Virus record (IMG/VR): IMGVR_UViG_2609459844_000008
Coordinates: 1 to 12,616 of that record
Length of the DNA stretch: 12,616 bases
From: a virus
Taxonomy: Duplodnaviria > Heunggongvirae > Uroviricota > Caudoviricetes
Strand: one strand, 5' to 3'
Each line of letters begins with the position of its first letter. Within the stretch, counting starts at the first letter, position 1. Below are positions 1 to 12,616 of this stretch, one piece after another. Under the pieces are notes generated by a model, which did no database searches, was not told where the DNA came from, and worked only from the letters and a program-made list of their open reading frames with translations. The position numbers and the translations under genes were made by a program.

Positions 1-471
1 CAGTTTTTTGGCAATATGTAAGCCCTGGCCGACACAGCCGTACTGCCCTTTGCTCAGGTCTGCCTTCGGATGATTCAGCGTACTCATATCCTGCACATCA
101 TGCAGACAGTGGTCAGCCGGGATGATGTCGTTATACGTACAACTCTCTCCACCCGGAGTTACCGTGCTGCGGCGCGCCAGCTGTTTAATGCGCGGATCCG
201 GAGCATCGTAAGAATCCGGTAACGGAAGCCCTTCACCGTAGGCCATGCCGTTGGACTGTCCGGCAAGCACAACCACGTAGAACCAGTCCGGCTCAGATGA
301 AGGGCCGACCTGTGGATCTCCTTCAATAGCCACCGCCTGCATCAGTGTGTACGGCGTAATGGCAACCGGTCCGCCATATGGCTGCCAGCCCTCTTTCAGT
401 TTGTGTGTCAGCTTTTCCGCAAGGTCTGACGGCGACGCCGCCCTGACAACATCATAGTGTTTAAATGCCAT
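1..471 (-). CDS. Sialate O-acetylesterase NanS-p-like protein, N-terminal 157 codons only (gene continues past the window start)
   Basis: Manual translation of the minus strand from ATG at 471..469 gives MAFKHYDVVRAASPSDLAEKLTHKLKEGWQPYGGPVAITPYTLMQAVAIEGD..., then ...VVVLAGQSNGMAYGEG... (GQSN motif of SGNH/DUF303 esterases). SD GGAGG 5 nt upstream. Resemblance to the DUF1737 N-terminus of Stx-phage 933W L0105-type esterases is from memory, not searched. Frame stays open to position 1. Confidence 0.7.
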   Translation of the reverse strand, partial: MAFKHYDVVRAASPSDLAEKLTHKLKEGWQPYGGPVAITPYTLMQAVAIEGDPQVGPSSEPDWFYVVVLAGQSNGMAYGEGLPLPDSYDAPDPRIKQLARRSTVTPGGESCTYNDIIPADHCLHDVQDMSTLNHPKADLSKGQYGCVGQGLHIAKKL

Positions 472-665
472 GAATCCTCCCGGCCGGGATAATATTGTGA
501 GTAAAATGAGGAGCGGGCTGAAGTCCGGAAGTTACAGGACAATGGCAGAAGAGAGACAATAGCCCGCAATACGAAAAAGGCCGCGCTATTGCGCAGAGTG
601 ATTACTGTCGGATATTATTCGCCAGCTGAAATATTACTTCACGTTTTGTTGTTTATTCCTTGCCG

Positions 666-693
666 CCCGCGTCTCCCTGCGCGGGATTTTTTT
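666..693 (+). terminator. Candidate intrinsic terminator (plus strand)
   Basis: 6-bp GC stem CCCGCG(666-671)/CGCGGG(680-685), 8-nt loop, followed by A then seven T (687-693). No plus-strand ORF lies upstream of it. Confidence 0.45.
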
Positions 694-696
694 GTC

Positions 697-724
697 CATA
701 AGAAAGCCCCTCCGGAGAGGGGCT
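697..724 (-). terminator. Candidate intrinsic terminator (minus strand), back to back with the previous hairpin
   Basis: Perfect 8-bp stem AGCCCCTC(705-712)/GAGGGGCT(717-724) with CGGA loop; on the minus strand it is followed by UUCUUAU (interrupted U tract), so strength is uncertain. Confidence 0.35.
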
Positions 725-920
725 GGAGAGTGGCGCTATGTGCCATTGCATGGTGCCGGGTGCCTCCCGGTGAATTCAGTACCAGCACCTGAATCCGCGA
801 TTATCCCATATACCTACTCGCTGATTGCCCCTCCGCACAGGGGGATTCACCATGCCAGTTTCTTTTAACAAACTCCCCGCAAAACAGACAACTGTCAACC
901 GTCTGAATTGTGAGACATTT

Positions 921-945
921 AAAAAAAAGGCCCGCAAAAGCGAGC
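921..945 (-). terminator. Intrinsic terminator closing the tRNA cluster
   Basis: On the minus strand: hairpin GCUCGC-UUUU-GCGGGC (one G-U pair) from plus 930-945, followed directly by eight U (plus A-run 921-928), ~15 nt past the 3' CCA of the last tRNA. Confidence 0.65.
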
Positions 946-960
946 AAGGGAAAATAAGTG

Positions 961-1037
961 TGGCGCGTTGTACTGGATTCGAACCAGTGACCGATTGCTT
1001 AGAAGGCAATTGCTCTGTCCGGCTGAGCTAACAACGC
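961..1037 (-). tRNA. argO: tRNA-Arg, anticodon UCU (reads AGA), 77 nt with encoded CCA
   Basis: Hand-folded cloverleaf of the reverse complement: acceptor GCGTTGT/ACAACGC, D-stem GCTC/GAGC, anticodon stem ATTGC/GCAAT with loop CTTCTAA, T-arm ACTGG-TTCGAAT-CCAGT, discriminator G, CCA. Symbol is by positional analogy to the ileZ-argN-argO cluster of Stx phages and is tentative. Confidence 0.85.
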
Positions 1038-1050
1038 AGGGTACAGATAA

Positions 1051-1127
1051 TGGACCGCCATCGAGGACTCGAACCCCGCGCAACCAGCTTCGAAGGCTGG
1101 CGCTCTATCCTGATGAGCTAATGGCGG
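1051..1127 (-). tRNA. argN: tRNA-Arg, anticodon UCG (reads CGA), 77 nt with encoded CCA
   Basis: Hand-folded: acceptor CCGCCAT/ATGGCGG (C1-G72), D-stem GCTC/GAGC, anticodon stem CCAGC/GCTGG with loop CTTCGAA, T-arm CGGGG-TTCGAGT-CCTCG (one G-U), discriminator U, CCA. Symbol tentative. Confidence 0.8.
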
Positions 1128-1134
1128 TATGTGA

Positions 1135-1206
1135 TGGTGGCCCTTGCTGGATTTGAACCAGCGACCTGGCGATTATGAGTCGCTCTCACCACTGAGCTAA
1201 AGGGCC
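1135..1206 (-). tRNA. ileZ: tRNA-Ile2 (lysidine)/Met-type tRNA, anticodon CAU, only 72 nt; anticodon stem appears truncated (possible pseudo-tRNA)
   Basis: Acceptor GGCCCTT/AAGGGCC, D-arm GCTC-AGTGGTGA-GAGC, T-arm GCTGG-TTCAAAT-CCAGC, loop CTCATAA and CCA are all recognisable. Only 2 nt (GA) separate the D-stem from the anticodon loop where 6 are expected; compared with E. coli ileX as I recall it, about 4 nt of the 5' anticodon-stem strand are missing. Confidence 0.6.
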
Positions 1207-1215
1207 GGGAGCCGC

Positions 1216-1244
1216 ATAATAACGACGCGTAATTAATTCTTCAA
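1216..1244 (-). promoter_or_regulatory. Candidate sigma70 promoter for the tRNA cluster
   Basis: Minus strand reads TTGAAG (1244..1239), a 17-nt spacer, then TATTAT (1221..1216). Predicted start is 2-3 nt upstream of the mature 5' end of the first tRNA (1206), consistent with a short RNase P-processed leader. Confidence 0.5.
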
Positions 1245-1368
1245 TATCATCCGTTCTGGCTGACTAAATCCTGTACTTCCCGAACCGTCTGCTCAAAACA
1301 TTCAGTCTCCAGCTCAACGCCAATTGCACGACGCCCGAGCGCCAGTGCTGCTTTGACGCTACGGACAT

Positions 1369-1397
1369 AAAAAAGCCAGCCACTGGGGGAGGCTGGC
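1369..1397 (-). terminator. Candidate intrinsic terminator (minus strand) upstream of the tRNA promoter
   Basis: Perfect 7-bp stem GCCAGCC(1375-1381)/GGCTGGC(1391-1397), 9-nt loop; on the minus strand followed by six U (plus A-run 1369-1374). Confidence 0.55.
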
Positions 1398-1580
1398 GAA
1401 ACTCGTAGAGCAAAAGTGTTGTTACACTAACTTCGTCACAGGATTATCCTGCAATACTCAAAATACACAATATTTACAAAACTAATAGTATACAAGGCGA
1501 TCTTTAAGATTTTGTTATAAATTATTGCCTTTCTCCTCTTTCCATGAGCTTTCTGGGTAGCCACAGAATTCCGGGTACAG

Positions 1581-1604
1581 AAAAACCCGCTCAGCGGCGG
1601 GTTT
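1581..1604 (-). terminator. Candidate intrinsic terminator (minus strand)
   Basis: Stem CCCGC(1586-1590)/GCGGG(1597-1601), extendable with A-T pairs to 8 bp, 6-nt loop; on the minus strand followed by UUUUUCUG. Confidence 0.45.
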
Positions 1605-2031
1605 AAGCTGTGTGACGAAGTAACCACTCTTAACAGCATAACCAATTTTTTACGTACGTAAACCACTAAATGATATTTGCGAGAATGCTACCGAGTATTG
1701 AAAACACCACTACAAATACATAAGCAAATCTCAACAAATAACCAACAAATAATTTCCAGTGTTATTTTTAGCCGGTTTAAATTGAACCTTCAAATTATAG
1801 AGCACTTATAAATAACAGCCGTTAATATAAATTGGCTAATAGATTTATTTTTATTCAGCCAAGAGCCATGAATAGGATTCGATAGAAAAAAGTTCAGATA
1901 AAAATAGAGATCTACTTCACAAATCAAACGAGAAACCAAAACTAACATCTTGAAATAATCACATTGATTAGATGAATATTTATCGCGCAGTGACATCATT
2001 TTTTAATAATAGTTCAAAAAAAGGGCTCACG

Positions 2032-3114
2032 ATGAAAAAATTAACAGTGGCAATTTCTGCTGTAGCTGCATCAGTACTGATGGCGATGTCTGCTCAGGCA
2101 GCTGAAATTTATAATAAAGACAGTAACAAGCTGGATCTGTACGGGAAAGTTAATGCTAAGCACTATTTCTCCTCTAATGATGCAGATGATGGTGATACTA
2201 CTTATGCCCGTCTTGGCTTCAAAGGTGAAACCCAAATCAACGATCAACTGACTGGTTTCGGTCAGTGGGAATATGAATTCAAAGGCAACCGCGCTGAATC
2301 TCAAGGTTCCTCCAAAGATAAAACCCGTCTTGCCTTCGCTGGCCTGAAATTCGGTGACTACGGCTCAATCGATTACGGCCGTAACTACGGTGTAGCATAC
2401 GACATCGGTGCGTGGACTGACGTTCTGCCAGAATTCGGTGGCGATACCTGGACCCAAACAGATGTGTTCATGACTGGTCGCACCACTGGTGTTGCAACTT
2501 ATCGTAACAACGACTTCTTTGGTCTGGTTGATGGTCTGAACTTTGCTGCTCAGTATCAGGGTAAAAATGACCGCACTGACGTAACTGAAGCTAATGGTGA
2601 TGGTTTCGGTTTCTCCACTACTTATGAGTATGAAGGATTCGGTGTAGGTGCAACCTATGCTAAATCTGACCGCACTAATAATCAGGTTATCTACGGTAAC
2701 AACAGCCTGAATGCATCTGGTCAAAATGCTGAAGTATGGGCAGCTGGTCTGAAATATGATGCGAACAACATCTATCTGGCTACCACCTATTCTGAACCCC
2801 AGAACATGACTGTTTTTGGTAATAACCATATTGCCAACAAAGCACAAAACTTCGAAGTAGTTGCACAATATCAGTTCGACTTCGGTCTGCGTCCGTCCGT
2901 TGCTTACCTGCAATCTAAAGGAAAAGACTTGGGTGCGTGGGGTGATCAGGACCTGGTTGAATATATTGATGTAGGTGCAACCTATTACTTCAACAAAAAT
3001 ATGTCCACTTTTGTTGATTACAAAATCAACCTGATTGATAAGAGCGATTTCACGAAAGCATCTGGCGTTGCTACCGATGATATCGTTGCTGTAGGTATGG
3101 TTTACCAGTTCTAA
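2032..3114 (+). CDS. Outer-membrane general porin, OmpC/OmpF superfamily, closest in character to OmpD/NmpC/Lc prophage porins (360 aa)
   Basis: Start taken at the internal ATG 2032 with SD AAGGG 6 nt upstream, not the 1972 ATG. Signal peptide [23 protein letters not shown] then [16 protein letters not shown]; characteristic porin motifs ([44 protein letters not shown]) and C-terminal ...VAVGMVYQF ending in Phe. TAA stop 3112-3114. Confidence 0.95.
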
Positions 3115-3138
3115 TTTGATTACTAAAAGATATGTTGC

Positions 3139-3157
3139 GGGGGGGTTTGCCTCCCCC
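3139..3157 (-). other. GC hairpin between the Q-like gene and the porin 3' end; weak terminator candidate on the minus strand
   Basis: G-run 3139-3145 pairs with C-run 3153-3157 around a 7-nt loop; on the minus strand it is followed by GCAACAUAUCUUUU (U tract displaced ~8 nt), so terminator function is doubtful. Confidence 0.3.
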
Positions 3158-3250
3158 ACATATAAGAGGCTCCCTCAAGCCACTTCCTTTAGGAGCACAA
3201 CCTTGCTTCTAACTATATAAACCTTCTGTTATATATTACCCTTTATTTTT

Positions 3251-3280
3251 GGGGGCGTTGCAACGCCCCATTTTTAATAA
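3251..3280 (+). terminator. Intrinsic terminator of the porin gene
   Basis: Perfect palindrome GGGGCGTTGCAACGCCCC (3252-3269) followed on the plus strand by ATTTTTAATAATTTTT. Confidence 0.6.
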
Positions 3281-3302
3281 TTTTTAGTAAACAATTGGCA
3301 TA

Positions 3303-3686
3303 TTAATTAGAGTTATTAACAACGATATCCATCTCTAACCGGATATCTAATGCCATTAACATCCCTTCAATTATGCCCTCAGCCTTCTGTAACCTTTTCC
3401 CGATATAACCATCAGAGCAGCAATGCTTACCTGCCAGTGACATGAATGTCATACCGACTACATAATAATCTACTAATAAATCGTGCAAATCGCTGTTGTT
3501 CTTTTTCAGACGGGCCATGCACCCGCAAATAATCATCGCGTCATCGTCACAACATTGCGGGCGAGATTTTACTTTTGAAGTAATTAATCCCTTAAAACCG
3601 GCGGCAATGGACGACCAGGTCACATCTTCATGATTATTAGCCGCCCACGCTCCCCAGCGTTCGAGAACCATCTGAATATCACGCAT
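3303..3686 (-). CDS. Late-gene antiterminator Q-like protein (QuuD/DLP12-type, 127 aa)
   Basis: Start moved from the TTG at 3701 to ATG 3686..3684, which has SD GGAG 7 nt upstream. Product [24 protein letters not shown]...[16 protein letters not shown]... matches my recollection of the DLP12 QuuD-type Q protein. Last gene of the minus-strand operon, convergent with the porin gene. Confidence 0.8.
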
Positions 3687-3703
3687 CAACTTTCTCCACA
3701 AAA

Positions 3704-4723
3704 TCAGGACAGCACACCAATCGCCAGCGCGCGATCGATAAAACGAAATATCAGCTCCAGTTGGGAACCATACTTCTCTTCAAATGCCACGGTATCCGCA
3801 TGTAGTTCGTCATGGTGTTTTCTGCACAAAGGCAACACAAAAAGGTCATGCGCTTTTGTACCCATTCCACCCTGACCATGACCAATCAGGTGATGAGGAT
3901 CGTCGGCTGGCTTACCACAACATGCACACGGCTGCGTCTTAACCCAGCGCGTGTACTTTTCATTAACCCAGCGACGACGTTTTGGGCGTAACATAAAAGA
4001 CTCCGGCGACTCCGGATCCACTTTCAGCGCCAGCACCTTTTTCGCTTTATCCTGGATGATGCTGGTGGCAGGAACCGAAGGCACAAGGTCACTTTCCCGG
4101 GTGACAGACGGCACAACAGGCTTCGGTAATCTCAGTGCCTTACGGGCTGCACTTTCCGGTAAGGCATCCGCCAGGTCATTACGAATCAGCCACCAGCACA
4201 GTTCCGGCATTGTCACAACGTGACTGTCATCAAAACCGAGATCCCGACGCACAACAGACAACACCCAGCGGGCACAGTTATCCGTTGCCATTGATTCCAG
4301 CCGTTCCGTGAACTGATCGCGCAGCTGGTTATCGCAGTGCCAGCACAGACGGATTGCACCCGGAGCGTGTCGCATTGTGGTCATGTTCTCGCTGTGCCAG
4401 TCGGAATGAGGCCACTGGCAGCCTTTTTCACGAAGTAACCAGCTTTCAAGACATTCCACGCCACCAGCACGACGGATCACTGCCTCATTGCGGAACACGG
4501 CCCGAACGGCAGGATCATCCGCCAGCGGTTGTGATGCCGCCGGAACGGCACCACTGGCGAAAGATGAATAACGTTCCGGCTCAGGCTCCAGCAGGACACG
4601 CCCCTGCATAAACAGGGGCATCAGCTCTGAACCGGGCCTGAACAATACAATCCCCATACGCGGGGCAATTTCAGGGGTCAGCAGTGCTCTCACGGTCACC
4701 TCAGCAAACGATATTGAATGCAT
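3704..4723 (-). CDS. nin-region protein, DUF968/YdfU-like, with a C-terminal HNH-like Cys/His motif (339 aa)
   Basis: ATG 4723..4721 with no strong SD. C-terminus ...[45 protein letters not shown] has the CxxC...HH...GG...C..HH spacing of HNH nucleases. Family name recalled, not searched. Confidence 0.7.
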
Positions 4724-4744
4724 ACAGAGAAAAAAACTCAGTCA

Positions 4745-5002
4745 TCACGCAGTAAACTCCTTCACCAGTATTTCAAACTGGCTTACCTGTCCTTCCAGTT
4801 CCTCCACGCAATCCACCAGCTCATCCACCGCCTTTTGTGTACGGTGTTTTGCCTGCAGCAGATCACGAAGCGCCGGAGTAAGCTGCTTGCGGAGCGTATC
4901 TTTTGCCACGCTCGTTTTTTCCATCTGTTCAGCACAACGAAGCATCTCCTGCGCCTGCCGACGAAGTTGTTCCGGTGAAACAGTGATTGTTCTGTTGTTC
5001 AA
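4745..5002 (-). CDS. Hypothetical small protein (85 aa), predicted helical/coiled-coil
   Basis: TTG start at 5002..5000 overlapping the DnaB-like TGA (TTGA), with GGAG 9 nt upstream. No recognised domain. Confidence 0.5.
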   Translation of the reverse strand: MNNRTITVSPEQLRRQAQEMLRCAEQMEKTSVAKDTLRKQLTPALRDLLQAKHRTQKAVDELVDCVEELEGQVSQFEILVKEFTA

Positions 5003-6399
5003 AATAAACGCTCCGTTTTACTGCCCGACATGCGGTTATTGCTGTATCTGCGCGGATTGCCCGGCGTCATGGGTGTGGAAAGAACCCGGGCACTCTCCTG
5101 ATCCACAGGCAGAAAATGCCCGTTATGAAAACGCCGGTAAATGGTACCCAGCGTGCCATTACGCTGTTTCGTGATGTTGATTTCTGCTATGCCTCTGGCC
5201 TGAGTTTCCGGGTTGTATACCTCATCCCTGTAAAGCATCAGAATGATGTCGGCATCCGCCTCGATTTCCCCGGAGTTTTTCAGGTCCGAGTTCATTGGGC
5301 GTTTATTGGGTCTGGATTCCACGCCGCGGGAGAGCTGGCTCAGAGCAATCAGCGGAAAACCGCCGGATTTTGCCAGGCTTTTAAGTCCCTTTGAGATTTC
5401 CCCCACCGCAAGGTCGTGACGCCCCGTGCTGCGGGTTTTAATCAGGCCGAGGTAATCGACCACCACCAGCGCCGTTTCCGGGTGTTTCATCCGGTGGTGC
5501 TTCGTGGTTGCACATATCTCATCAATGGTCAGGTTTGCCTGGTCCACCATCCAGATATTACGCCCCGTCATTCGTCCCACGCCCTGCGTGAAACGCGCCC
5601 AGTCTTCATCTTCAAAACGGGCAACAGACTTAAGACGGGATACCGGCATTCCACCGGCAGCAGACACCATACGTTCACCAATCTGGATGTTCGCCATCTC
5701 CATGGTGAACAGAAGCACGCCATGCCCCTGCTCAGTCACCTTGTCGATGATGTCCAGCGCAAGTTCGGTTTTCCCCATCGAAGGACGGGCGGCAATGAAT
5801 ACCAGGTCTCCGGGCTCCATACCGCCCGTTTTTGCGTCCAGTTCATCAATACCGGTCATCAGCGCCCTGGATTTCTCCAGTCCCTGATTGCGGCATTCAA
5901 CACGGTCGACCACTTCCGGAAGGACATCATCAATGTGAACCGGCTGAATGACGCCCTTTCCGGTCGACAGTGAGGCCATCATGTTCTGCGCATCCTTCAG
6001 GGCATCCTCGGCTGCTTCACAGGTATACGCATCACGTAAATTCTGTAATGCTTCAGTCAGTGTTTTTTCTGCATCGCGCAGTGCGGCATTGCGCCGCAAC
6101 GCTGCGACATAGTGCTCCAGTGAAGACTTCACCCAGGTTTTGCGTCCGGTGTCGGTAATCACCGGGGCAAGTTCCGGCATCTCATTGCACAGCAGTACGG
6201 GGTCAATGACGCCGGATATGCGAGCCTGTCTGCAAATCCCCGCGTAAATATCCCGGTACTGACGCACAAAAAATACATCCGCCGGAAGTGTGGCCAGAAT
6301 ATCCATCACTTCCGGATCGGCCCCACGCAGAAAAAACGCACCGATGACAGCGCCTTCCAGGTCATCGTTACGCCATGCCGGGGTGTTCTGGCTGGTCAT
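4999..6399 (-). CDS. Replicative DNA helicase, DnaB family (466 aa, phage-encoded)
   Basis: ATG 6399..6397 overlaps the upstream stop (ATGA); SD GGAGG upstream. Walker A AARPSMGKTELALD and Walker B LVVVDYLGL, typical DnaB N- and C-domain sequence. Confidence 0.95.
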   Translation of the reverse strand: MTSQNTPAWRNDDLEGAVIGAFFLRGADPEVMDILATLPADVFFVRQYRDIYAGICRQARISGVIDPVLLCNEMPELAPVITDTGRKTWVKSSLEHYVAALRRNAALRDAEKTLTEALQNLRDAYTCEAAEDALKDAQNMMASLSTGKGVIQPVHIDDVLPEVVDRVECRNQGLEKSRALMTGIDELDAKTGGMEPGDLVFIAARPSMGKTELALDIIDKVTEQGHGVLLFTMEMANIQIGERMVSAAGGMPVSRLKSVARFEDEDWARFTQGVGRMTGRNIWMVDQANLTIDEICATTKHHRMKHPETALVVVDYLGLIKTRSTGRHDLAVGEISKGLKSLAKSGGFPLIALSQLSRGVESRPNKRPMNSDLKNSGEIEADADIILMLYRDEVYNPETQARGIAEINITKQRNGTLGTIYRRFHNGHFLPVDQESARVLSTPMTPGNPRRYSNNRMSGSKTERLF

Positions 6400-7295
6400 G
6401 CGGCAACACCTCCGATACGAGAACGGTAGCTGGGCCAGTTAAACGACAACCAGTTGCGCCCGCCATCGGTGATCCTGTCGGCAATCCGGGGACTGATGAA
6501 CGCCCACAATTCTTCCGGTGAAAGGTTGCTGATCAGGATAGTTGGCAAAATACCCTCATACCGGGCATTGATAATTTCCTGCAAAATGGCCATTTCAGCC
6601 GCACTGCCAAACTGAACGCCGACTTCGTCGACAATCAGCAAATCCAGTGACGCATAATGCTCAATGACGTCATCCGCTGTTTTTTCACTGTCATTCCGCC
6701 AGCAGTTTTTCACAGCCCGGGTAAGGCGCATCACGTCGGTGATCTCCACACTGGCCAGATAGTTACGGATGATGTGTTTTGCCATTGATACCGCCAGATG
6801 ATTTTTCCCGGTACCGCAACTGCCGGTCATAACAATACTGGTACCGTTCTCCAGCATATCTGGCCAGTTCTCCGCATAGCGGCGACAGGCCGCAAGATTT
6901 CTGGCTGCGTCAGGATTAACCTCCAGATAATTATCAAACTCGCAGTCCCGAAAACGCAGAGCAATTCCGGCGTTATCAGTCAGTTCTTCCGCCTTGAGGG
7001 ACGACAGTTCCATGGTCAAATCACTGGCCTCAGCGATCAAGCAGTCAGGGCAGCATGAAATTTTTTCTCTGTCCTCGCCATTACGATCGATCCACACCAG
7101 TATATGCGTACGATATTTACCGTGTTTTTCGCAATATCCGCGATCTTCACGCATCAGGCAGGAACGATAAGGCCATGGCTTTTCGCCCTTCTGAGCAAAT
7201 GCAATCTCTGCCCGTAACTCATCCATTTCTGCCCGTAACTCATCCATTCGCGCCTGTAGTCTTGTTTGTTTCTCACGTTGGTCAATCGTCATCAT
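6396..7295 (-). CDS. DnaC-like helicase loader, IstB-type AAA+ ATPase (about 299 aa)
   Basis: Walker A GSCGTGKNHLAVSMAK and Walker B LLIVDEVG. The longest ORF starts at GTG 7304; ATG 7295..7293 is preferred because GAGGT sits 7 nt upstream. The N-terminus contains a perfect 7-aa duplication (MDELRAE x2). Confidence 0.9.
   Translation of the reverse strand: MMTIDQREKQTRLQARMDELRAEMDELRAEIAFAQKGEKPWPYRSCLMREDRGYCEKHGKYRTHILVWIDRNGEDREKISCCPDCLIAEASDLTMELSSLKAEELTDNAGIALRFRDCEFDNYLEVNPDAARNLAACRRYAENWPDMLENGTSIVMTGSCGTGKNHLAVSMAKHIIRNYLASVEITDVMRLTRAVKNCWRNDSEKTADDVIEHYASLDLLIVDEVGVQFGSAAEMAILQEIINARYEGILPTILISNLSPEELWAFISPRIADRITDGGRNWLSFNWPSYRSRIGGVAA
7207..7248. repeat. Perfect 21-bp tandem duplication (2 copies) inside the DnaC-like gene
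   Basis: TCTGCCCGTAACTCATCCATT at 7207-7227 and again at 7228-7248; in frame, encoding MDELRAE twice. Confidence 0.9.
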
Positions 7296-7305
7296 CGCTG
7301 TCACC

Positions 7306-8298
7306 TCAGAATGTCAATTTGTTACTGGATTTACCGAATTTGTCAGACATGGCTCCCAGGCCAGCCAGGACATCGACCTGTCGCTGTCGCCCACCTCCGT
7401 GAGCGGCTGGCTGTTGCCAGTAATCTTCGAAGTGACGATCGGGTCCAAAGAACGTCGCAGCCTGCTTCACGAACTGTGTGCCGGTATTTCCTGTAGCACG
7501 TACCCAGGCGGCATACCGCTTCACGCCATCAAGCATGGTCTCCGGTTTTATTCCCTCCCTGATACGGGCTTTCCAGGCTTTGAAGGCTGCTGACTTGGAA
7601 TTGCCACCAGCACGTTTGGGATATTCCTGCCAGGCCTGTTCAAATTCCGGTGAATATTCCTGTCGGGCAGAACGCGCTGGCGCAGACGCGTCAGCGGATG
7701 CATCAATAGTGTTTTTAGTCTCCGTTGTAATCTCTGTAGTAATCTCTGTATTTGTATCAACATTCGGCGTATCCCCTGTTCCGTTATGACGTCGGGGGGT
7801 GTTCCGTTTTAACGTAATAGCTGTATCGCTGATTGCATTATTGCTGTTACTTTCTGGCGAAACAGAAGAAGGTGTGGTGATGGCCGCAATTGCCTGTGGG
7901 TTGATCCCGACAAACAAAATATTGCTGCATTTCACCCCATCGAGCATTTCCACCGTGCGTAAATCCAGAGTAATAAACCCTGTATCGCGCAGACGCTTCA
8001 GCGCATCTGCGGTTTCCCTTTTCCCGAAACCAAACTGCTCAGCAAACGCCTGGTAGCTTCTTTGCAGTTTGTCGCCCTGAAAACGCTTGCGATATCCCAG
8101 CAACGCTCCGGTGTGCTCATCCCTGACCTCTGTCGGGCGGTACCAGTAAACGATCTCTGAAAGCAGAGCGATAGCCGTCGCATCCGGACGCCCACTGGGT
8201 AGTCGAATATATTTCCACCAGTTCGCAGGTGTAACATTGCCGGAAATATTAATTTGACCAATAGCCATAACTTCCGGTGTGGGGGCGTAACGGCTCAT
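7306..8298 (-). CDS. Phage replication initiator / replisome organiser, lambda O-like (330 aa)
   Basis: ATG 8298 with SD AAGGAGG upstream. N-terminal domain and C-terminal region (EYSPEFEQAWQEYPKRAGG...AAWVRATGNTG...) separated by a low-complexity T/E/I/S-rich linker; sits directly upstream of the loader and helicase genes. Confidence 0.85.
   Translation of the reverse strand: MSRYAPTPEVMAIGQINISGNVTPANWWKYIRLPSGRPDATAIALLSEIVYWYRPTEVRDEHTGALLGYRKRFQGDKLQRSYQAFAEQFGFGKRETADALKRLRDTGFITLDLRTVEMLDGVKCSNILFVGINPQAIAAITTPSSVSPESNSNNAISDTAITLKRNTPRRHNGTGDTPNVDTNTEITTEITTETKNTIDASADASAPARSARQEYSPEFEQAWQEYPKRAGGNSKSAAFKAWKARIREGIKPETMLDGVKRYAAWVRATGNTGTQFVKQAATFFGPDRHFEDYWQQPAAHGGGRQRQVDVLAGLGAMSDKFGKSSNKLTF
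7727..7750. repeat. 12-bp direct repeat, 2 tandem copies, in the linker-coding part of the O-like gene
   Basis: GTAATCTCTGTA at 7727-7738 and 7739-7750, encoding TEITTEIT, with degenerate related sequence on both sides. Confidence 0.8.
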
Positions 8299-8594
8299 AC
8301 AACCTCCTTCCGCGGCATGAGAATTGTGTAGCCACGCGCAGGTTGTAGTCTGGCTTTTGCATCAATAGTAAGCGTTGCAATTTTTCGGATATGAAGATAA
8401 CCAGCTCTTTCCAGTGCCAGGGTTTCCCTGAATATCGCTTGCTTAGAACAACAGCAGAAATCAGCAAGCACCTGATGATCAATAACTCTCTCGCCTTCAC
8501 CGTCTGAAGAACCCGACATCAAAACACGCAACATAACCAGGCGCTGAATCGGGTTATCGAAAGCACATCCGCACACAAACTGAAAACAGTTCAC
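8295..8594 (-). CDS. Hypothetical protein (99 aa), possible winged-helix DNA-binding fold
   Basis: GTG start overlapping the upstream stop (GTGA); stop overlaps the O-like ATG (ATGA). Segment VLADFCCCSKQAIFRETLALERAGYLHIRK resembles a recognition helix and wing. Start codon uncertain. Confidence 0.55.
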   Translation of the reverse strand: MNCFQFVCGCAFDNPIQRLVMLRVLMSGSSDGEGERVIDHQVLADFCCCSKQAIFRETLALERAGYLHIRKIATLTIDAKARLQPARGYTILMPRKEVV

Positions 8595-8815
8595 GCCACA
8601 CCTCCCAGACGCTTAAACATTTTTCCAGACAGAAATACCGCCAGAGGGTAACTGATGGTGTAGCTACGCCCCTGTAGTTCGCACACGACTTTCTGGCTTT
8701 CAGCGTTGACCAGGCAAACCCGCAGAACGTGACCGTTGCTGGTGGCGAACCACTGCCCCACACGGGGGCAACGGTTGTATCGGTGATACAGGGAATTAAC
8801 GATGTGGCGGATCAT
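8591..8815 (-). CDS. Hypothetical protein (74 aa)
   Basis: ATG 8815 with SD GGAGGTG 7 nt upstream; 4-nt overlaps with both neighbours. Confidence 0.6.
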   Translation of the reverse strand: MIRHIVNSLYHRYNRCPRVGQWFATSNGHVLRVCLVNAESQKVVCELQGRSYTISYPLAVFLSGKMFKRLGGVA

Positions 8816-9006
8816 GGATGCACCTCCGCCGTAGTTACGTATTTAACCGGGCTACCTTTCATTGAGATGGTTTCACACATCTCTGCCGCTTTCAGTTCCG
8901 CTGTTTTTCTGGATTTATAGCGACGGTGCCAGACAGATACATCCGTGCGAACTGATACATCGTTTCTGTATTCCGTAGTGGAGATGATGATTTCGTAACT
9001 AATCAT
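8812..9006 (-). CDS. Hypothetical protein (64 aa)
   Basis: ATG 9006 with SD AAGGAGG upstream; ATGA overlap with the Rha-like stop. Confidence 0.6.
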   Translation of the reverse strand: MISYEIIISTTEYRNDVSVRTDVSVWHRRYKSRKTAELKAAEMCETISMKGSPVKYVTTAEVHP

Positions 9007-9554
9007 GGGCGAACCTCCTTGTCAGAACCATTCAGCCTGGAATCAACAAGTGCAGCGCCAAAAACAGCATCACCAACACGGTCGTACAGTTTGCTAGCCA
9101 GCGGAGATTCAATGGCCTTAAGCATTGGATAAAGCTGGCTTGTCCAGATTTGATGGATTTCACGCAAATGCAGGTATACGCCTCTGGCGTTTCGTGCGAC
9201 AGCTGACATATCAACCGCGTCAGCACCAGATAAATTCTTCTCCATCTGGTTAAAGGCGTTGATGTATGCCTCTTTGAACCGGGCTGCACGTTTGCCAGTA
9301 AAGCCCATAGCAAGGAACGCGAAGCCATCACGGGTGATTTGATAGCAAGGTAGTTTGCGGCCTGTGCAATCGGTGTAATCACTCACCGAAAAATTGCGGG
9401 CAGTGAATGATGCGGAGCATTCAAGCGTGCGGATCTTTTTCAGTACATCGTCATGACGCTTGGAGAAGAAGTTGGCAACAGCCAGGGATGAAGTAACAGC
9501 CTGACCATCAACGATGGCAATTTCAGGTTGAGTGAGGGTTGGGATCGTAGCCAT
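9003..9554 (-). CDS. Phage regulatory protein Rha family (183 aa)
   Basis: Start set at the internal ATG 9554..9552 with SD GGAGG 8 nt upstream; the 100-codon extension up to 9854 has no RBS and is low-complexity. Product has Rha hallmarks: FSKRHDDVLKKIR, YQITRDGFAFLAMGFTGKRAARFKEAYINAFNQME. Confidence 0.8.
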   Translation of the reverse strand: MATIPTLTQPEIAIVDGQAVTSSLAVANFFSKRHDDVLKKIRTLECSASFTARNFSVSDYTDCTGRKLPCYQITRDGFAFLAMGFTGKRAARFKEAYINAFNQMEKNLSGADAVDMSAVARNARGVYLHLREIHQIWTSQLYPMLKAIESPLASKLYDRVGDAVFGAALVDSRLNGSDKEVRP

Positions 9555-9938
9555 GATGGCAGCCTCCGTTGACTGTGGAAAACTTCCACCACCGGAGCTG
9601 CGAAACTCACTGGTGGCAGACTGAACAGGGTTCGCAGTACCGGCGTCAACGGAGACCGGCGAGCCTTTCGGCTCCCCTGCCCAGCCCACCATAATTCTGG
9701 CGTGCGTGAGCGCGGACGATAAAAAAGACGCTGGCGCGTCATATATCGCCGTTGACAATTCCGGGCTGCGACCCCCGGCACCCGCTTTATAAGGTGCAGA
9801 GACAGTGTAACGTCCCGAAATTGCAGAATCAATATTTGGTCTTGAAATGATCATATAGCTGCTGATATCTTTAGAACTGTTCTTGGATGTTTCGGAGCCG
9901 TTTTATGCGAAACAGCTCCCCGTTATTGATGTTGAGTG

Positions 9939-9963
9939 AGCCGGGTTACTCCCGGCTTTTTTT
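9939..9963 (+). terminator. Strong intrinsic terminator on the plus strand with no plus-strand gene upstream
   Basis: Perfect 7-bp stem AGCCGGG(9939-9945)/CCCGGCT(9951-9957), loop TTACT, then seven T through 9963. It abuts the stop codon (9965..9963) of the minus-strand gene; on the minus strand it is preceded by A and not followed by U. Confidence 0.6.
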
Positions 9964-10358
9964 CACCGCTGCCAACCAATAACCTGAAATAACCCCATTT
10001 TCGGGTGATACCAGCGAGTCCCTCGCGGTTCTGCTTCCTCCATAACCCGATAAAAAGCAGCCATAAACGGTTCCACAGCAACAATTGCGCGACGTGACAA
10101 CAATCCGTCCGGCGTCATGAACTCATGTGTGTCTGTAGGAATTTGATAGGCGTTCACCAGATTGCGGCATTTATCATCTGACAAACCGGTTTTTGCTTTC
10201 AGTTGGCGATATCCGGCATAGCCCTCACGAATAGTGCCCTTTTTAATTTGCTCGACTGTTTCAGCAACGTGGCTGACTTTTTCTTCCACCTGAGTGATCC
10301 GTTTCTGCTGACGAACTGCTTCAAGAGCCATCGCGGCAACCATTTCGATTTCGCTCAT
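9963..10358 (-). CDS. Hypothetical prophage protein (131 aa); first gene of the minus-strand block
   Basis: ATG 10358 has no convincing SD. The frame is stop-free for 53 more codons upstream (to TGA at 10520..10518) but contains no ATG/GTG/TTG. No recognised domain. Confidence 0.55.
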   Translation of the reverse strand: MSEIEMVAAMALEAVRQQKRITQVEEKVSHVAETVEQIKKGTIREGYAGYRQLKAKTGLSDDKCRNLVNAYQIPTDTHEFMTPDGLLSRRAIVAVEPFMAAFYRVMEEAEPRGTRWYHPKMGLFQVIGWQR

Positions 10359-10520
10359 TGGCTTACGGATCTGTTCTTCCAGTTCGCGCCAGCGATCTAC
10401 CAGGCGAGCAGTGAATTCAGGACAGAGCTGTGCGACGACAATGATGCTGTCGCGCTTAACTCCGGATGGTTGGATAAGCTGTAGTGAGCGAATGCCGGAC
10501 GACAGGCAGGAGGTGAATCA

Positions 10521-10622
10521 ATGAGCTGGCCTGATGCAATCGTAACTCTGGGGGGTGGTATTCGCAGCAGCGTTTGTTGTGTTCTCGATTTGTCGATGGG
10601 GATAACCACATGTTCGCTTTGA
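10521..10622 (+). CDS. Candidate small ORF (33 aa) with a strong RBS, overlapping the start of the next gene; possible leader/upstream ORF
   Basis: AGGAGGTGA at 10508-10516, ATG 10521; product MSWPDAIVTLGGGIRSSVCCVLDLSMGITTCSL; TGA 10620-10622 overlaps the downstream ATG at 10610 out of frame. Below the size cut of the ORF track. Confidence 0.3.
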   Translation: MSWPDAIVTLGGGIRSSVCCVLDLSMGITTCSL

Positions 10623-10852
10623 TTCAACGCGGTCAGATATACACGGACAGAGCCGGATACCCCGTGGTGATTACTCGCATCACTGAGCACTCAGTGTTCT
10701 TTCGACGGATGGACGGACGATCCGGGCGGGTACGCATTGGTGAGTTAAACTGCCTGTTCGAACATATTGACCACCAGGAGTACCGCAAAATTCTCGCGGA
10801 CACTGAGCAGGAAAAGCACCTGAAAAAATTACGAGCCATAAAAAGGAAGTAA
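10610..10852 (+). CDS. Hypothetical small prophage protein (80 aa)
   Basis: Internal ATG 10610 preferred over the TTG at 10574. Product MFALIQRGQIYTDRAGYPVVITRITEHSVFFRRMDGRSGRVRIGELN...; TAA at 10850-10852. Confidence 0.6.
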   Translation: MFALIQRGQIYTDRAGYPVVITRITEHSVFFRRMDGRSGRVRIGELNCLFEHIDHQEYRKILADTEQEKHLKKLRAIKRK

Positions 10853-10855
10853 AGA

Positions 10856-11002
10856 ATGAATAAAGCATTTGAACGATGGGTCCACCAGCGTTACGGCAAT
10901 CGCTATTACCTGACGCGAGATGTTGACGGCTTCTACTGTCGTGAAGTTGTGAAGCGAATGTTTGAAGTGTGGTGCCACTGCCGTGGGCTGAGTGTTGTGT
11001 GA
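10856..11002 (+). CDS. Candidate small protein (48 aa) with a C-terminal Cys/His cluster
   Basis: ATG 10856 three nt after the upstream stop, with AGGAAG 4 nt upstream (short spacing, probably coupled). Product MNKAFERWVHQRYGNRYYLTRDVDGFYCREVVKRMFEVWCHCRGLSVV; TGA 11000-11002 lies 8 nt before the next ATG. Not in the ORF track. Confidence 0.45.
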   Translation: MNKAFERWVHQRYGNRYYLTRDVDGFYCREVVKRMFEVWCHCRGLSVV

Positions 11003-11010
11003 GGTAATAC

Positions 11011-11247
11011 ATGGGCAATGTGATTCAACTGGCTCCCAATGAATGGGTTTGTGAAAGCGTTCTTATCGCAATTACCGGGCTCAAACCAGGCACAATTCTT
11101 CGGGCCCGGAAAGAATGCTGGATGGTTGGAAGAGAGTATATTCACGTATCACCAGACGGTAATCCAAAGCCTTCCAGTGAATGTATGTATAACAGAAAAG
11201 CAATAGATGCCTGGGTCGCCTCAATGAAAAACAAACAACCCAGGTGA
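11011..11247 (+). CDS. Excisionase-like small DNA-binding protein (78 aa)
   Basis: ATG 11011 with GAGG 6 nt upstream; immediately upstream of and co-oriented with the integrase. Resemblance to prophage excisionase-like proteins is from memory. Confidence 0.65.
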   Translation: MGNVIQLAPNEWVCESVLIAITGLKPGTILRARKECWMVGREYIHVSPDGNPKPSSECMYNRKAIDAWVASMKNKQPR

Positions 11248-11302
11248 TTTAATATCATGAAATATGTAAGCTCGTATCGCTCTTGGGCGTCTGGAGGTAT
11301 CG

Positions 11303-12616
11303 ATGGATAAAGTCAAATATCCAACAGGCGTCGAAAACCACGGCGGCACATTACGCATCTGGTTTAATTTTAAAGGTAAACGTGTCAGGGAAAATCTTGG
11401 TGTCCCTGACACTGCCAAGAACAGGAAGATCGCCGGGGAACTGCGGACATCAGTATGTTTTGCCATCCGCACAGGAAGCTTTGATTATGCTGCACAGTTC
11501 CCTGACTCCCCCAACCTTCAGGCTTTTGGGGTAAGTAAAAAAGAAATTACGGTGAAGGAACTTGAAGAAAAGTGGCTGGATCTGAAACGAATGGAAATCT
11601 CTGCAAATGCATTCAATCGCTATGAATCCGTTGCAAGAACGATGGCTCCGAAAATTGGAGGCAGTAGACTGGTGTCATCGGTAACCAAAGAGGAATTGCT
11701 GTATATCAGGAAAGATTTGCTTACCGGGTATCAGAATTCAACGAAAAACAAAGCAGCAGCAAAAGGACGGAGCGTCGTTACTGTAAATTATTACATGACG
11801 ACAATCGCTGGAATGTTTCAGTTTGCTGCAGATCACGGTTACTTAGAAGCAAATCCCTTCCAGGGAATTAAGCCTCTTAAAAGAGCCAGGGCAGAGCCAG
11901 ATCCGCTAACTCGTGACGAATTTATTCGCCTGATAGATGCTTGCCGACATCAGCAGACGAAAAACCTGTGGTCATTGGCTGTGTACACAGGAATGCGTCA
12001 CGGTGAACTGGTCTCCCTGGCCTGGGAAGATATCGATCTGAAGGCAGGAACAATTACCATCAGGCGCAATTATACGAAACTTGGTGAGTTCACTCTACCG
12101 AAAACTGAAGCAAGCACAAACAGGGTTGTGCACCTTATCCAGCCCGCTATCAGTGTCCTGAAAAATCAGGCTGAAATGACAAGACTGGGTAAGCAGTACA
12201 ACATCAAGGTGCAACTACGTGAATATGGACGTTCAGTGAACCATGAATGTACTTTCGTGTTTAACCCTCAAGTGGTTAGAAAAAGCGAACAGGTAGGTTT
12301 TGTCTACAAAGTCGATTCTGTAGGTGACTCATGGGAAACAGCCATTAAGCGTGCAGGGATCAGGCATCGAAAGGCATACCAGTCACGACACACTTATGCG
12401 TGCTGGTCATTATCTGCCGGAGCAAACCCAAGCTTCATTGCCAGCCAGATGGGCCATGCAAGTGCCCAGATGGTATTCAATGTATACGGAGCATGGATGA
12501 CTGACAGCAATGCAGAACAGATCGCAATGCTGAATCAGAAGCTGACAGATTATGTCCCAATGATGCCCCATAGTCACCAAAGTGACACCAGAGGCTTATT
12601 AAAATCAGTAAGTTAA
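11303..12616 (+). CDS. int: Tyrosine site-specific recombinase / phage integrase (437 aa)
   Basis: ATG 11303 with SD GGAGGT at 11293-11298. C-terminal catalytic domain with ...YTGMRHGELVSLAWEDIDL... (Arg), ...RHTYACWSL... (His-x-x-Arg) and ...MGHASAQMVFNVYGAW... (His and Tyr). TAA at 12614-12616. Overall resemblance to Stx-phage 933W-type integrases is recalled, not tested. Confidence 0.95.
   Translation: MDKVKYPTGVENHGGTLRIWFNFKGKRVRENLGVPDTAKNRKIAGELRTSVCFAIRTGSFDYAAQFPDSPNLQAFGVSKKEITVKELEEKWLDLKRMEISANAFNRYESVARTMAPKIGGSRLVSSVTKEELLYIRKDLLTGYQNSTKNKAAAKGRSVVTVNYYMTTIAGMFQFAADHGYLEANPFQGIKPLKRARAEPDPLTRDEFIRLIDACRHQQTKNLWSLAVYTGMRHGELVSLAWEDIDLKAGTITIRRNYTKLGEFTLPKTEASTNRVVHLIQPAISVLKNQAEMTRLGKQYNIKVQLREYGRSVNHECTFVFNPQVVRKSEQVGFVYKVDSVGDSWETAIKRAGIRHRKAYQSRHTYACWSLSAGANPSFIASQMGHASAQMVFNVYGAWMTDSNAEQIAMLNQKLTDYVPMMPHSHQSDTRGLLKSVS

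Follow-up and report, generated by a model that had tools for sequence, protein, structure and literature searches.

The DNA analysed here, referred to as the window throughout, is a stretch of 12,616 nucleotides that reads as the early half, or int-to-Q arm, of a lambdoid prophage adjoining yecE in E. coli. Its plus strand ends with a tyrosine integrase gene (11303..12616; assigned by Pfam and PHROGs), which abuts or overlaps the host gene yecE in related prophages and on NCBI contig JNPF01000036.1. Ahead of int lie an excisionase gene of the DUF1233 family (11011..11247; profile match with E=9.5e-33), an open reading frame (ORF) for a conserved phage protein of 48 amino acids (10856..11002; phrog_3871) and a DUF4222 gene (10610..10852; PF13973, E=8e-14), which forms the distal part of a former leftward early (pL-type) operon. 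The minus strand carries the remnant of a roi/rha-type gene described below, a Rha-family ORF annotated with 283 amino acids (9003..9854; Phage_pRha, E=1.9e-30) and the remaining rightward early genes (3303..8594; from the ORF list, PHROGs and annotation), with three small ORFs on the same strand between the Rha gene and the O-like initiator. The rightward early genes comprise a 99-aa ORF that resembles the N-terminal part of a replication-initiator family, the O-like initiator (7306-8298, minus strand; Pfam and PHROGs), a DnaC-like ATPase, a DnaB helicase, an 85-aa ORF, a DUF968 gene and the Q antiterminator. The DnaC-like and DnaB-like identities derive from precomputed Pfam matches on contig JNPF01000036.1 and from the annotation of relatives, while the Q protein matches a Q-like antiterminator family and its counterpart in AF39 is annotated as QuuD. 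The names originally given to the two divergent blocks, one leading to xis and int and the other to Rha and the replication genes, were upheld by Pfam and PHROGs.

Several further features accompany these genes. A tandem repeat inside the O-like initiator gene (7719-7750; 12 nt in 2.7 copies) encodes TEITTEITTE and may represent origin iterons, and a second one (7207-7248; 21 nt in 2.0 copies) lies inside the DnaC-like gene. Downstream of Q, the minus strand encodes the small RNA STnc100 (139 bits) and three tRNAs (Arg-tct, Arg-tcg and one of Met/Ile-type cat) at 694-1206. An OmpC/NmpC-like porin moron occupies 1972-3114 on the plus strand; the start annotated in relatives is 2032, not 1972. 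A reading of the element as a PICI or satellite was rejected, as Q, the porin moron, the tRNAs and a DUF1737 late-region gene succeed one another in lambdoid order.

Two truncated genes at a sequence junction

The plus-strand and minus-strand blocks begin only 162 nt apart, counted from the minus-strand ATG at 10358 to the plus-strand ATG at 10521, which agrees with the distance of about 160 bp first noted. The original prediction suspected a deletion scar in this region and suggested an alignment with intact relatives. By BLAST and base-by-base comparison with MLI109, this alignment places the junction at 10457..10459. The window matches MLI109 in two blocks, 4743-10462 at 99.1% and 10457-12616 at 99.7% identity, which are separated by 6,011 bp in MLI109. 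Agreement with the left parent extends to 10458, and that with the right parent sets in at 10457; the two parents have TA in common, followed by CTC after one mismatch. Consistent with this position, a megablast search with 9800-11300 against 5,426 complete E. coli genomes returned thousands of matches, none covering 80% of the query. The right-side matches all started at 10457 and the left-side ones all stopped at 10458-10462.

On the left of the junction lies a 5′-truncated roi/rha-1 gene (9963..10458, minus strand), which by tblastn is 100% identical to residues 72-235 of MLI109 Roi. It retains codons ~70-235 of a Rha/Roi DNA-binding protein of 235 amino acids but lacks the start codon, the ribosome binding site (RBS) and most of the N-terminal winged-helix (Phage_pRha) domain. 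Pfam assigns this domain to residues 12-99 of full-length MLI109 Roi, and neither the 131-aa nor the 184-aa translation of the remnant gave a Pfam match to it. Gene callers report only the 131-aa ORF at 9963-10358. The surviving part resembles the C-terminal portions of anti-repressor families as well as phrog_6610, a stand-alone family of ~122 amino acids.

On the right, 10459..10524 of the plus strand is the 3′ remnant of a DUF551-linker gene, identified by alignment and tblastn and consisting of 21 codons (TPDGWISCSERMPDDRQEVNQ) and the stop codon. The gene encodes 163 amino acids in MLI109; ~140 codons are missing here. When the proteins encoded in the corresponding intervals of relatives were compared with the window by tblastn, the matches were confined to Roi residues 72-235 and DUF551 residues 140-163. 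That only these two pieces remain explains an oddity already recorded in the original prediction. The frame of 9963-10358 continues without a stop for a further 53 codons, as far as 10517, and contains no ATG, GTG or TTG before a minus-strand TGA at 10518-10520 is reached. Of these stop-free codons, 33 belong to the interior of Roi and 20 run antisense to the DUF551 remnant. The reported lack of a Shine-Dalgarno (SD) sequence in front of the first minus-strand gene was likewise borne out, as the 27 nt preceding the ATG at 10358 (GAACTGGAAGAACAGATCCGTAAGCCA) contain none that is suitably placed.

The strong plus-strand RBS pointed out earlier is the consensus AGGAGG at 10508-10513, located 7 nt ahead of the ATG of a candidate ORF of 33 codons (10521..10622; MSWPDAIVTLGGGIRSSVCCVLDLSMGITTCSL). 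This ORF overlaps its neighbours at both ends, by its start with the stop codon of the DUF551-type gene (ATGA) and by its end with the start of the DUF4222 gene. It has no match in Pfam or PHROGs and is absent from the RefSeq annotation of relatives. Since RBS and ORF are identical in MLI109 and 2015C-3121, they are not products of the junction; they are native to the leftward operon and predate the deletion.

The positions of the two breakpoints differ in character. The roi genes of MLI109, AF39 and PhiR49_2 are mosaic: their N-terminal ~200 nt, encoding the N-terminal DNA-binding part, are divergent, and the genes are near-identical from AGGTAAGCGCG onward. The switch falls at 10456-10460 of the window (9213-9220 in L001), and the left breakpoint lies within 0-3 nt of it. 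A random deletion does not predict this position, and we treat the coincidence as unexplained. The right breakpoint is located 14 nt inside a ~55-nt linker common to DUF551, ea22 and pyrophosphohydrolase genes and coincides with no mosaic edge. A join between two module edges was considered and dropped because, with the left breakpoint at a mosaic boundary, the right one lies within this conserved linker. Positions 10457-10511 of the window correspond to the 3′ part of the ~55-nt segment, which encodes GNSPVTPDGWISCSERMPD. This segment is conserved at the nucleotide level between DUF551 and unrelated N-terminal domains (ea22-like, dATP/dGTP pyrophosphohydrolase and others) and recurs at thousands of loci in E. 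coli prophages and P1-like plasmids. It is likely a hot spot for domain shuffling.

Content of the missing interval in intact relatives

In MLI109, the interval between the two flanks contains most of the DUF551-type gene, ea22-like genes, DUF4752 and three small genes. A LexA-family repressor, an HTH protein and, in the position of cro, a 75-aa gene are also annotated there, as are the first ~70 codons of roi. The repressor is composed of HTH_3 and Peptidase_S24 (Pfam). Promoter-like sites and a repeated operator-like motif, TTGATACT, are found in the cI-cro and cI-HTH intergenic regions. There are three copies of this motif, which is that of one relative only, in the MLI109 immunity region and none in the window. 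Identity to AF39 amounts to 99.6% over 1-10458 of the window and to 99.7% over the right flank, and in AF39 the same int adjoins yecE, yecN and cmoA. Between its flanks, AF39 has ~7.0 kb with an XRE/S24 cI different from that of MLI109 and a cro gene of the YdaS/P22_Cro type. Phage PhiR49_2 contains 6.2 kb at this place, with annotated cI, Cro and Roi, and its gene order (int, xis, Ea22, cI, Cro, Roi, O, DnaC, helicase, YdfU, Q) corresponds to that of the window. Sixteen genome records cover at least ~80% of the window, and in the 15 listed the matched part spans 17.7-20.8 kb compared with the 12.6 kb of the window. All relatives holding both flanks have 6-8 kb extra between them, including cI and cro in the three that were examined in detail. 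A literature search on PhiR49_2 and GCA_000703525.1 returned nothing.

Compared with the window by tblastn at E<=1, the cI, HTH and cro proteins of the three relatives produced chance-level matches at most: the three cI proteins found no counterpart of a cI-type repressor (HTH plus S24 peptidase), and the cro proteins gave only hits of 16-18 residues with E about 0.5-0.8. Pfam and PHROGs revealed no repressor-like, HTH or S24 family in the subset of window ORFs scanned.

Neither a repressor gene just beyond int nor a relative with identical architecture, either of which would have spoken against a scar, was found. On contig JNPF01000036.1, int is followed by yecE, yecN, cmoA, cmoB and an IS110 transposase, so that no repressor adjoins the window on the integrase side. 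A search of 5,426 complete E. coli genomes and 50,697 phage records yielded no relative with the architecture of the window or with its exact junction. The suspected deletion scar is strongly supported: the flanks are collinear with one yecE prophage at more than 99% identity, the relatives carry 6-8 kb more, and truncation affects both genes at the junction.

A look-up of the 131-aa product showed that JNPF01000036.1, which belongs to GCA_000703525.1 and is reported for 2 samples, is identical to the window in its junction and gene order. This draft assembly is the only one from which the junction is known; it was found neither among GTDB species representatives nor in JGI metagenomes. Five other contigs with the same 131-aa product (L004-L008) begin at that ORF and are uninformative on the junction. 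In Logan contig L009, 44 unmatched nucleotides stop near the breakpoint of the window, a stretch too short to interpret. Logan contig L010 (ERR1301258) looks artificial, as the polylinker-like sequence GGTACCCCGGGGATC lies upstream (1-60). This sequence is joined to a PhiR49_2-type roi, and the contig probably stems from a construct or transposon library and not from a natural junction.

An assembler may in principle have created the junction by joining two parts of an intact prophage whose immunity region resides on another contig. The occurrence of the junction in a single draft assembly with short contigs, and its absence from the complete genomes, phage records, GTDB representatives and JGI metagenome contigs searched, would fit such a misjoin. 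So would the placement of the right breakpoint within the ~55-nt linker, which is repeated in many prophage genes, as such repeats can mislead assemblers. However, the parental overlap at the join amounts to only 2 nt, far below any assembler k-mer, and the left side is not repeated sequence. Moreover, the contig is reported for two samples, and order and orientation of the flanks are those expected of a simple internal deletion. A misassembly is very unlikely in the light of these points.

An antirepressor module beside the junction

The region left of the roi remnant contains predicted regulatory RNAs. Rfam identifies an isrK-type small RNA at 9721..9797 on the minus strand (58.7 bits; gathering score 50), with a Rho-independent terminator at 9740-9727. 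A promoter, TTGATT-17-TACACT, likely lies just upstream of it; it was read by eye and stays below the threshold of the scanner. A C4-like antisense RNA follows at 9609..9696 on the same strand (78.8 bits; gathering score 45) and overlaps an orf45-type leader ORF that starts with the ATG at 9692. According to profile search, sequence and the published description of the Gifsy-1 locus (PMC4825925), the minus strand from 9692 to 9003 encodes an orf45 homologue fused in frame to an AnrP-like Rha antirepressor, the internal ATG of which, at 9554, is preceded by GGAGG. The annotated 283-aa Rha ORF (9003-9854), which includes a Pfam Phage_ASH region, overlies isrK, the terminator and the C4-like RNA. 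The real coding unit is probably the in-frame fusion of orf45 (ATG at 9692) and the AnrP-like Rha (ATG at 9554), and the 283-aa ORF is probably too long, running across the likely isrK promoter from its annotated start at 9854 upstream of it.

On the opposite strand, the segment 9842-9966 contains a promoter-like TTGAAA-18-TATCTT with a TG, downstream of which a strong hairpin and seven consecutive T occupy 9938-9965. The corresponding RNA of 91 nt (9876-9966) folds with z = -3.7 and is a predicted small transcript that diverges from isrK and ends at the roi stop codon. It matches no Rfam family and recalls lambda OOP.

The minus-strand module is similar to isrK-orf45-anrP of Gifsy-1 and c4-icd-ant of P1 immI, in which a small RNA with its own promoter and a leaky terminator is combined with a leader ORF and a Rha-type antirepressor. 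The Rfam matches to isrK and C4 occur at the spacing described for Gifsy-1, where the small RNA activates translation of the antirepressor (PMC4825925). In contrast to these cassettes, orf45 is fused to the antirepressor, and no repressor target is present in cis after the deletion. An in-frame fusion of orf45 to the antirepressor was also described in S. dysenteriae (PMC4825925).

Given the presence of isrK and C4-like RNAs, the statement that the window contains no repressor-like gene holds for proteins only; at the RNA level, regulators of an antirepressor are present. They do not replace the lost functions. The module sits in the left block that is 99% identical to intact relatives, which accordingly have it beside cI and cro. 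As it is carried together with these genes, it is accessory and no substitute for cI immunity. As an alternative to a deletion, the original prediction had considered that the element is governed by a different repressor/antirepressor system or in trans. Such control is not needed, as the Rha antirepressor module coexists with cI and cro in intact relatives.

Antirepressors are able to act on the repressors of other prophages. Together with the isrK and C4-like RNAs upstream of the Rha antirepressor, this capacity might suggest a functional phage whose lysogeny is maintained by the C4/IsrK RNA-antirepressor module or by the repressor of another prophage in trans. Indeed, Gifsy antirepressors are stated to act on the repressors of other prophages (PMC4825925). 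Yet the module resides beside cI and cro in intact relatives, and an antirepressor cassette represses its own ant gene only. Furthermore, the genes to the left and right of the junction are truncated, the first gene of the rightward block lacks both start codon and RBS, a promoter scan detected no promoter-like site in 10359-10520 including the junction, and none of the phage records searched shares the layout. A functional phage is highly improbable on these grounds. There is a small chance that the remnant is not inert. Its cassette could antagonise the repressors of other lambdoid prophages in trans, and the coincidence of the left breakpoint with the Roi domain boundary could stem from a recombination hot spot or from selection that favoured a free C-terminal domain of Roi.

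Loss of the immunity region and comparison with other prophages

Taken together, the data argue for one illegitimate recombination event, at a microhomology of 2 bp (TA), by which a yecE lambdoid prophage lost its ~6-kb centre, a reading to which we assign a probability of roughly 0.9. The event is classified as illegitimate because the parents have nothing but TA, and CTC after one mismatch, in common at the join. The deletion would extend from inside the DUF551-linker gene of the leftward early operon to approximately codon 70 of roi/rha-1 in the rightward early operon. By comparison with intact relatives, it would have eliminated cI, cro, a second HTH gene, operator repeats and the pL-like and pR-like promoters, along with ea22, DUF4752 and several small genes. 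In support of this, the missing interval is where the relatives have their repressor, cro, operators and both early promoter regions. Size and content of the lost segment are approximations for which MLI109 is the best proxy of the parent, as immunity type varies among the relatives.

The ~6-kb segment could in principle reside elsewhere in the same genome. An inversion or relocation of the centre, for instance by recombination between two resident lambdoid prophages, might be entertained because several related prophages are common per E. coli genome (the median number of places matching the whole window is 4) and many of them have the DUF551 linker; it is nevertheless barely conceivable, as both flanks derive from one yecE prophage type in native order and orientation and homologous exchange needs shared sequence at the left breakpoint, where there is none.

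The deletion model has several predicted consequences. Repressor and both early promoters would have been lost together, and this joint loss would have made the deletion non-lethal, so that the host survived. The replication genes and Q would be left without an early promoter, cut off from pR, and xis and int would be deprived of pL and leftward early transcription. With the early promoters of all these genes gone, the element is presumably a locked-in, non-inducible cryptic prophage. The PisrK-IsrK/C4-orf45::AnrP cassette would be the only regulatory unit remaining on the side of the junction, without a cognate repressor in cis. The prophage should be labelled defective, and the 131-aa "gene" should be regarded as a pseudogene fragment of roi. 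Sequence-based predictions of inducible prophages or of the mobility of Stx-type phages should score this element as non-inducible. In itself, the event is ordinary cryptic-prophage decay. It provides a tidy and recent case in which loss of the repressor spares the host, both early promoters having disappeared with it.

Cryptic (defective) lambdoid prophages of E. coli include DLP12, Rac and Qin. Like these, the element described here has kept int/xis, replication genes or Q and a porin-type moron, whereas essential regulatory or structural parts have been deleted and the remainder is fixed in the chromosome. It differs from them in being another prophage at another site, yecE, and in its lesion, which consists of one clean internal deletion of 6 kb. 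Moreover, the event looks recent, since the flanks are more than 99% identical to intact relatives and the junction is free of IS elements.

The closest comparison is provided by intact yecE-integrating elements, namely the MLI109 and AF39 prophages, Escherichia phage PhiR49_2, PPyecE_EH1910 and phiP27. They have the same integrase, excisionase, DUF4222 gene and host neighbours at identities of 90-99.7%, and Roi, isrK/C4-Rha, the O-like and DnaC-like proteins, DnaB, DUF968 and Q follow in the same order. Between DUF4222 and Roi, however, the intact relatives accommodate 6-7 kb with cI, cro, the HTH gene, ea22 and others, whereas the window has 0 bp.
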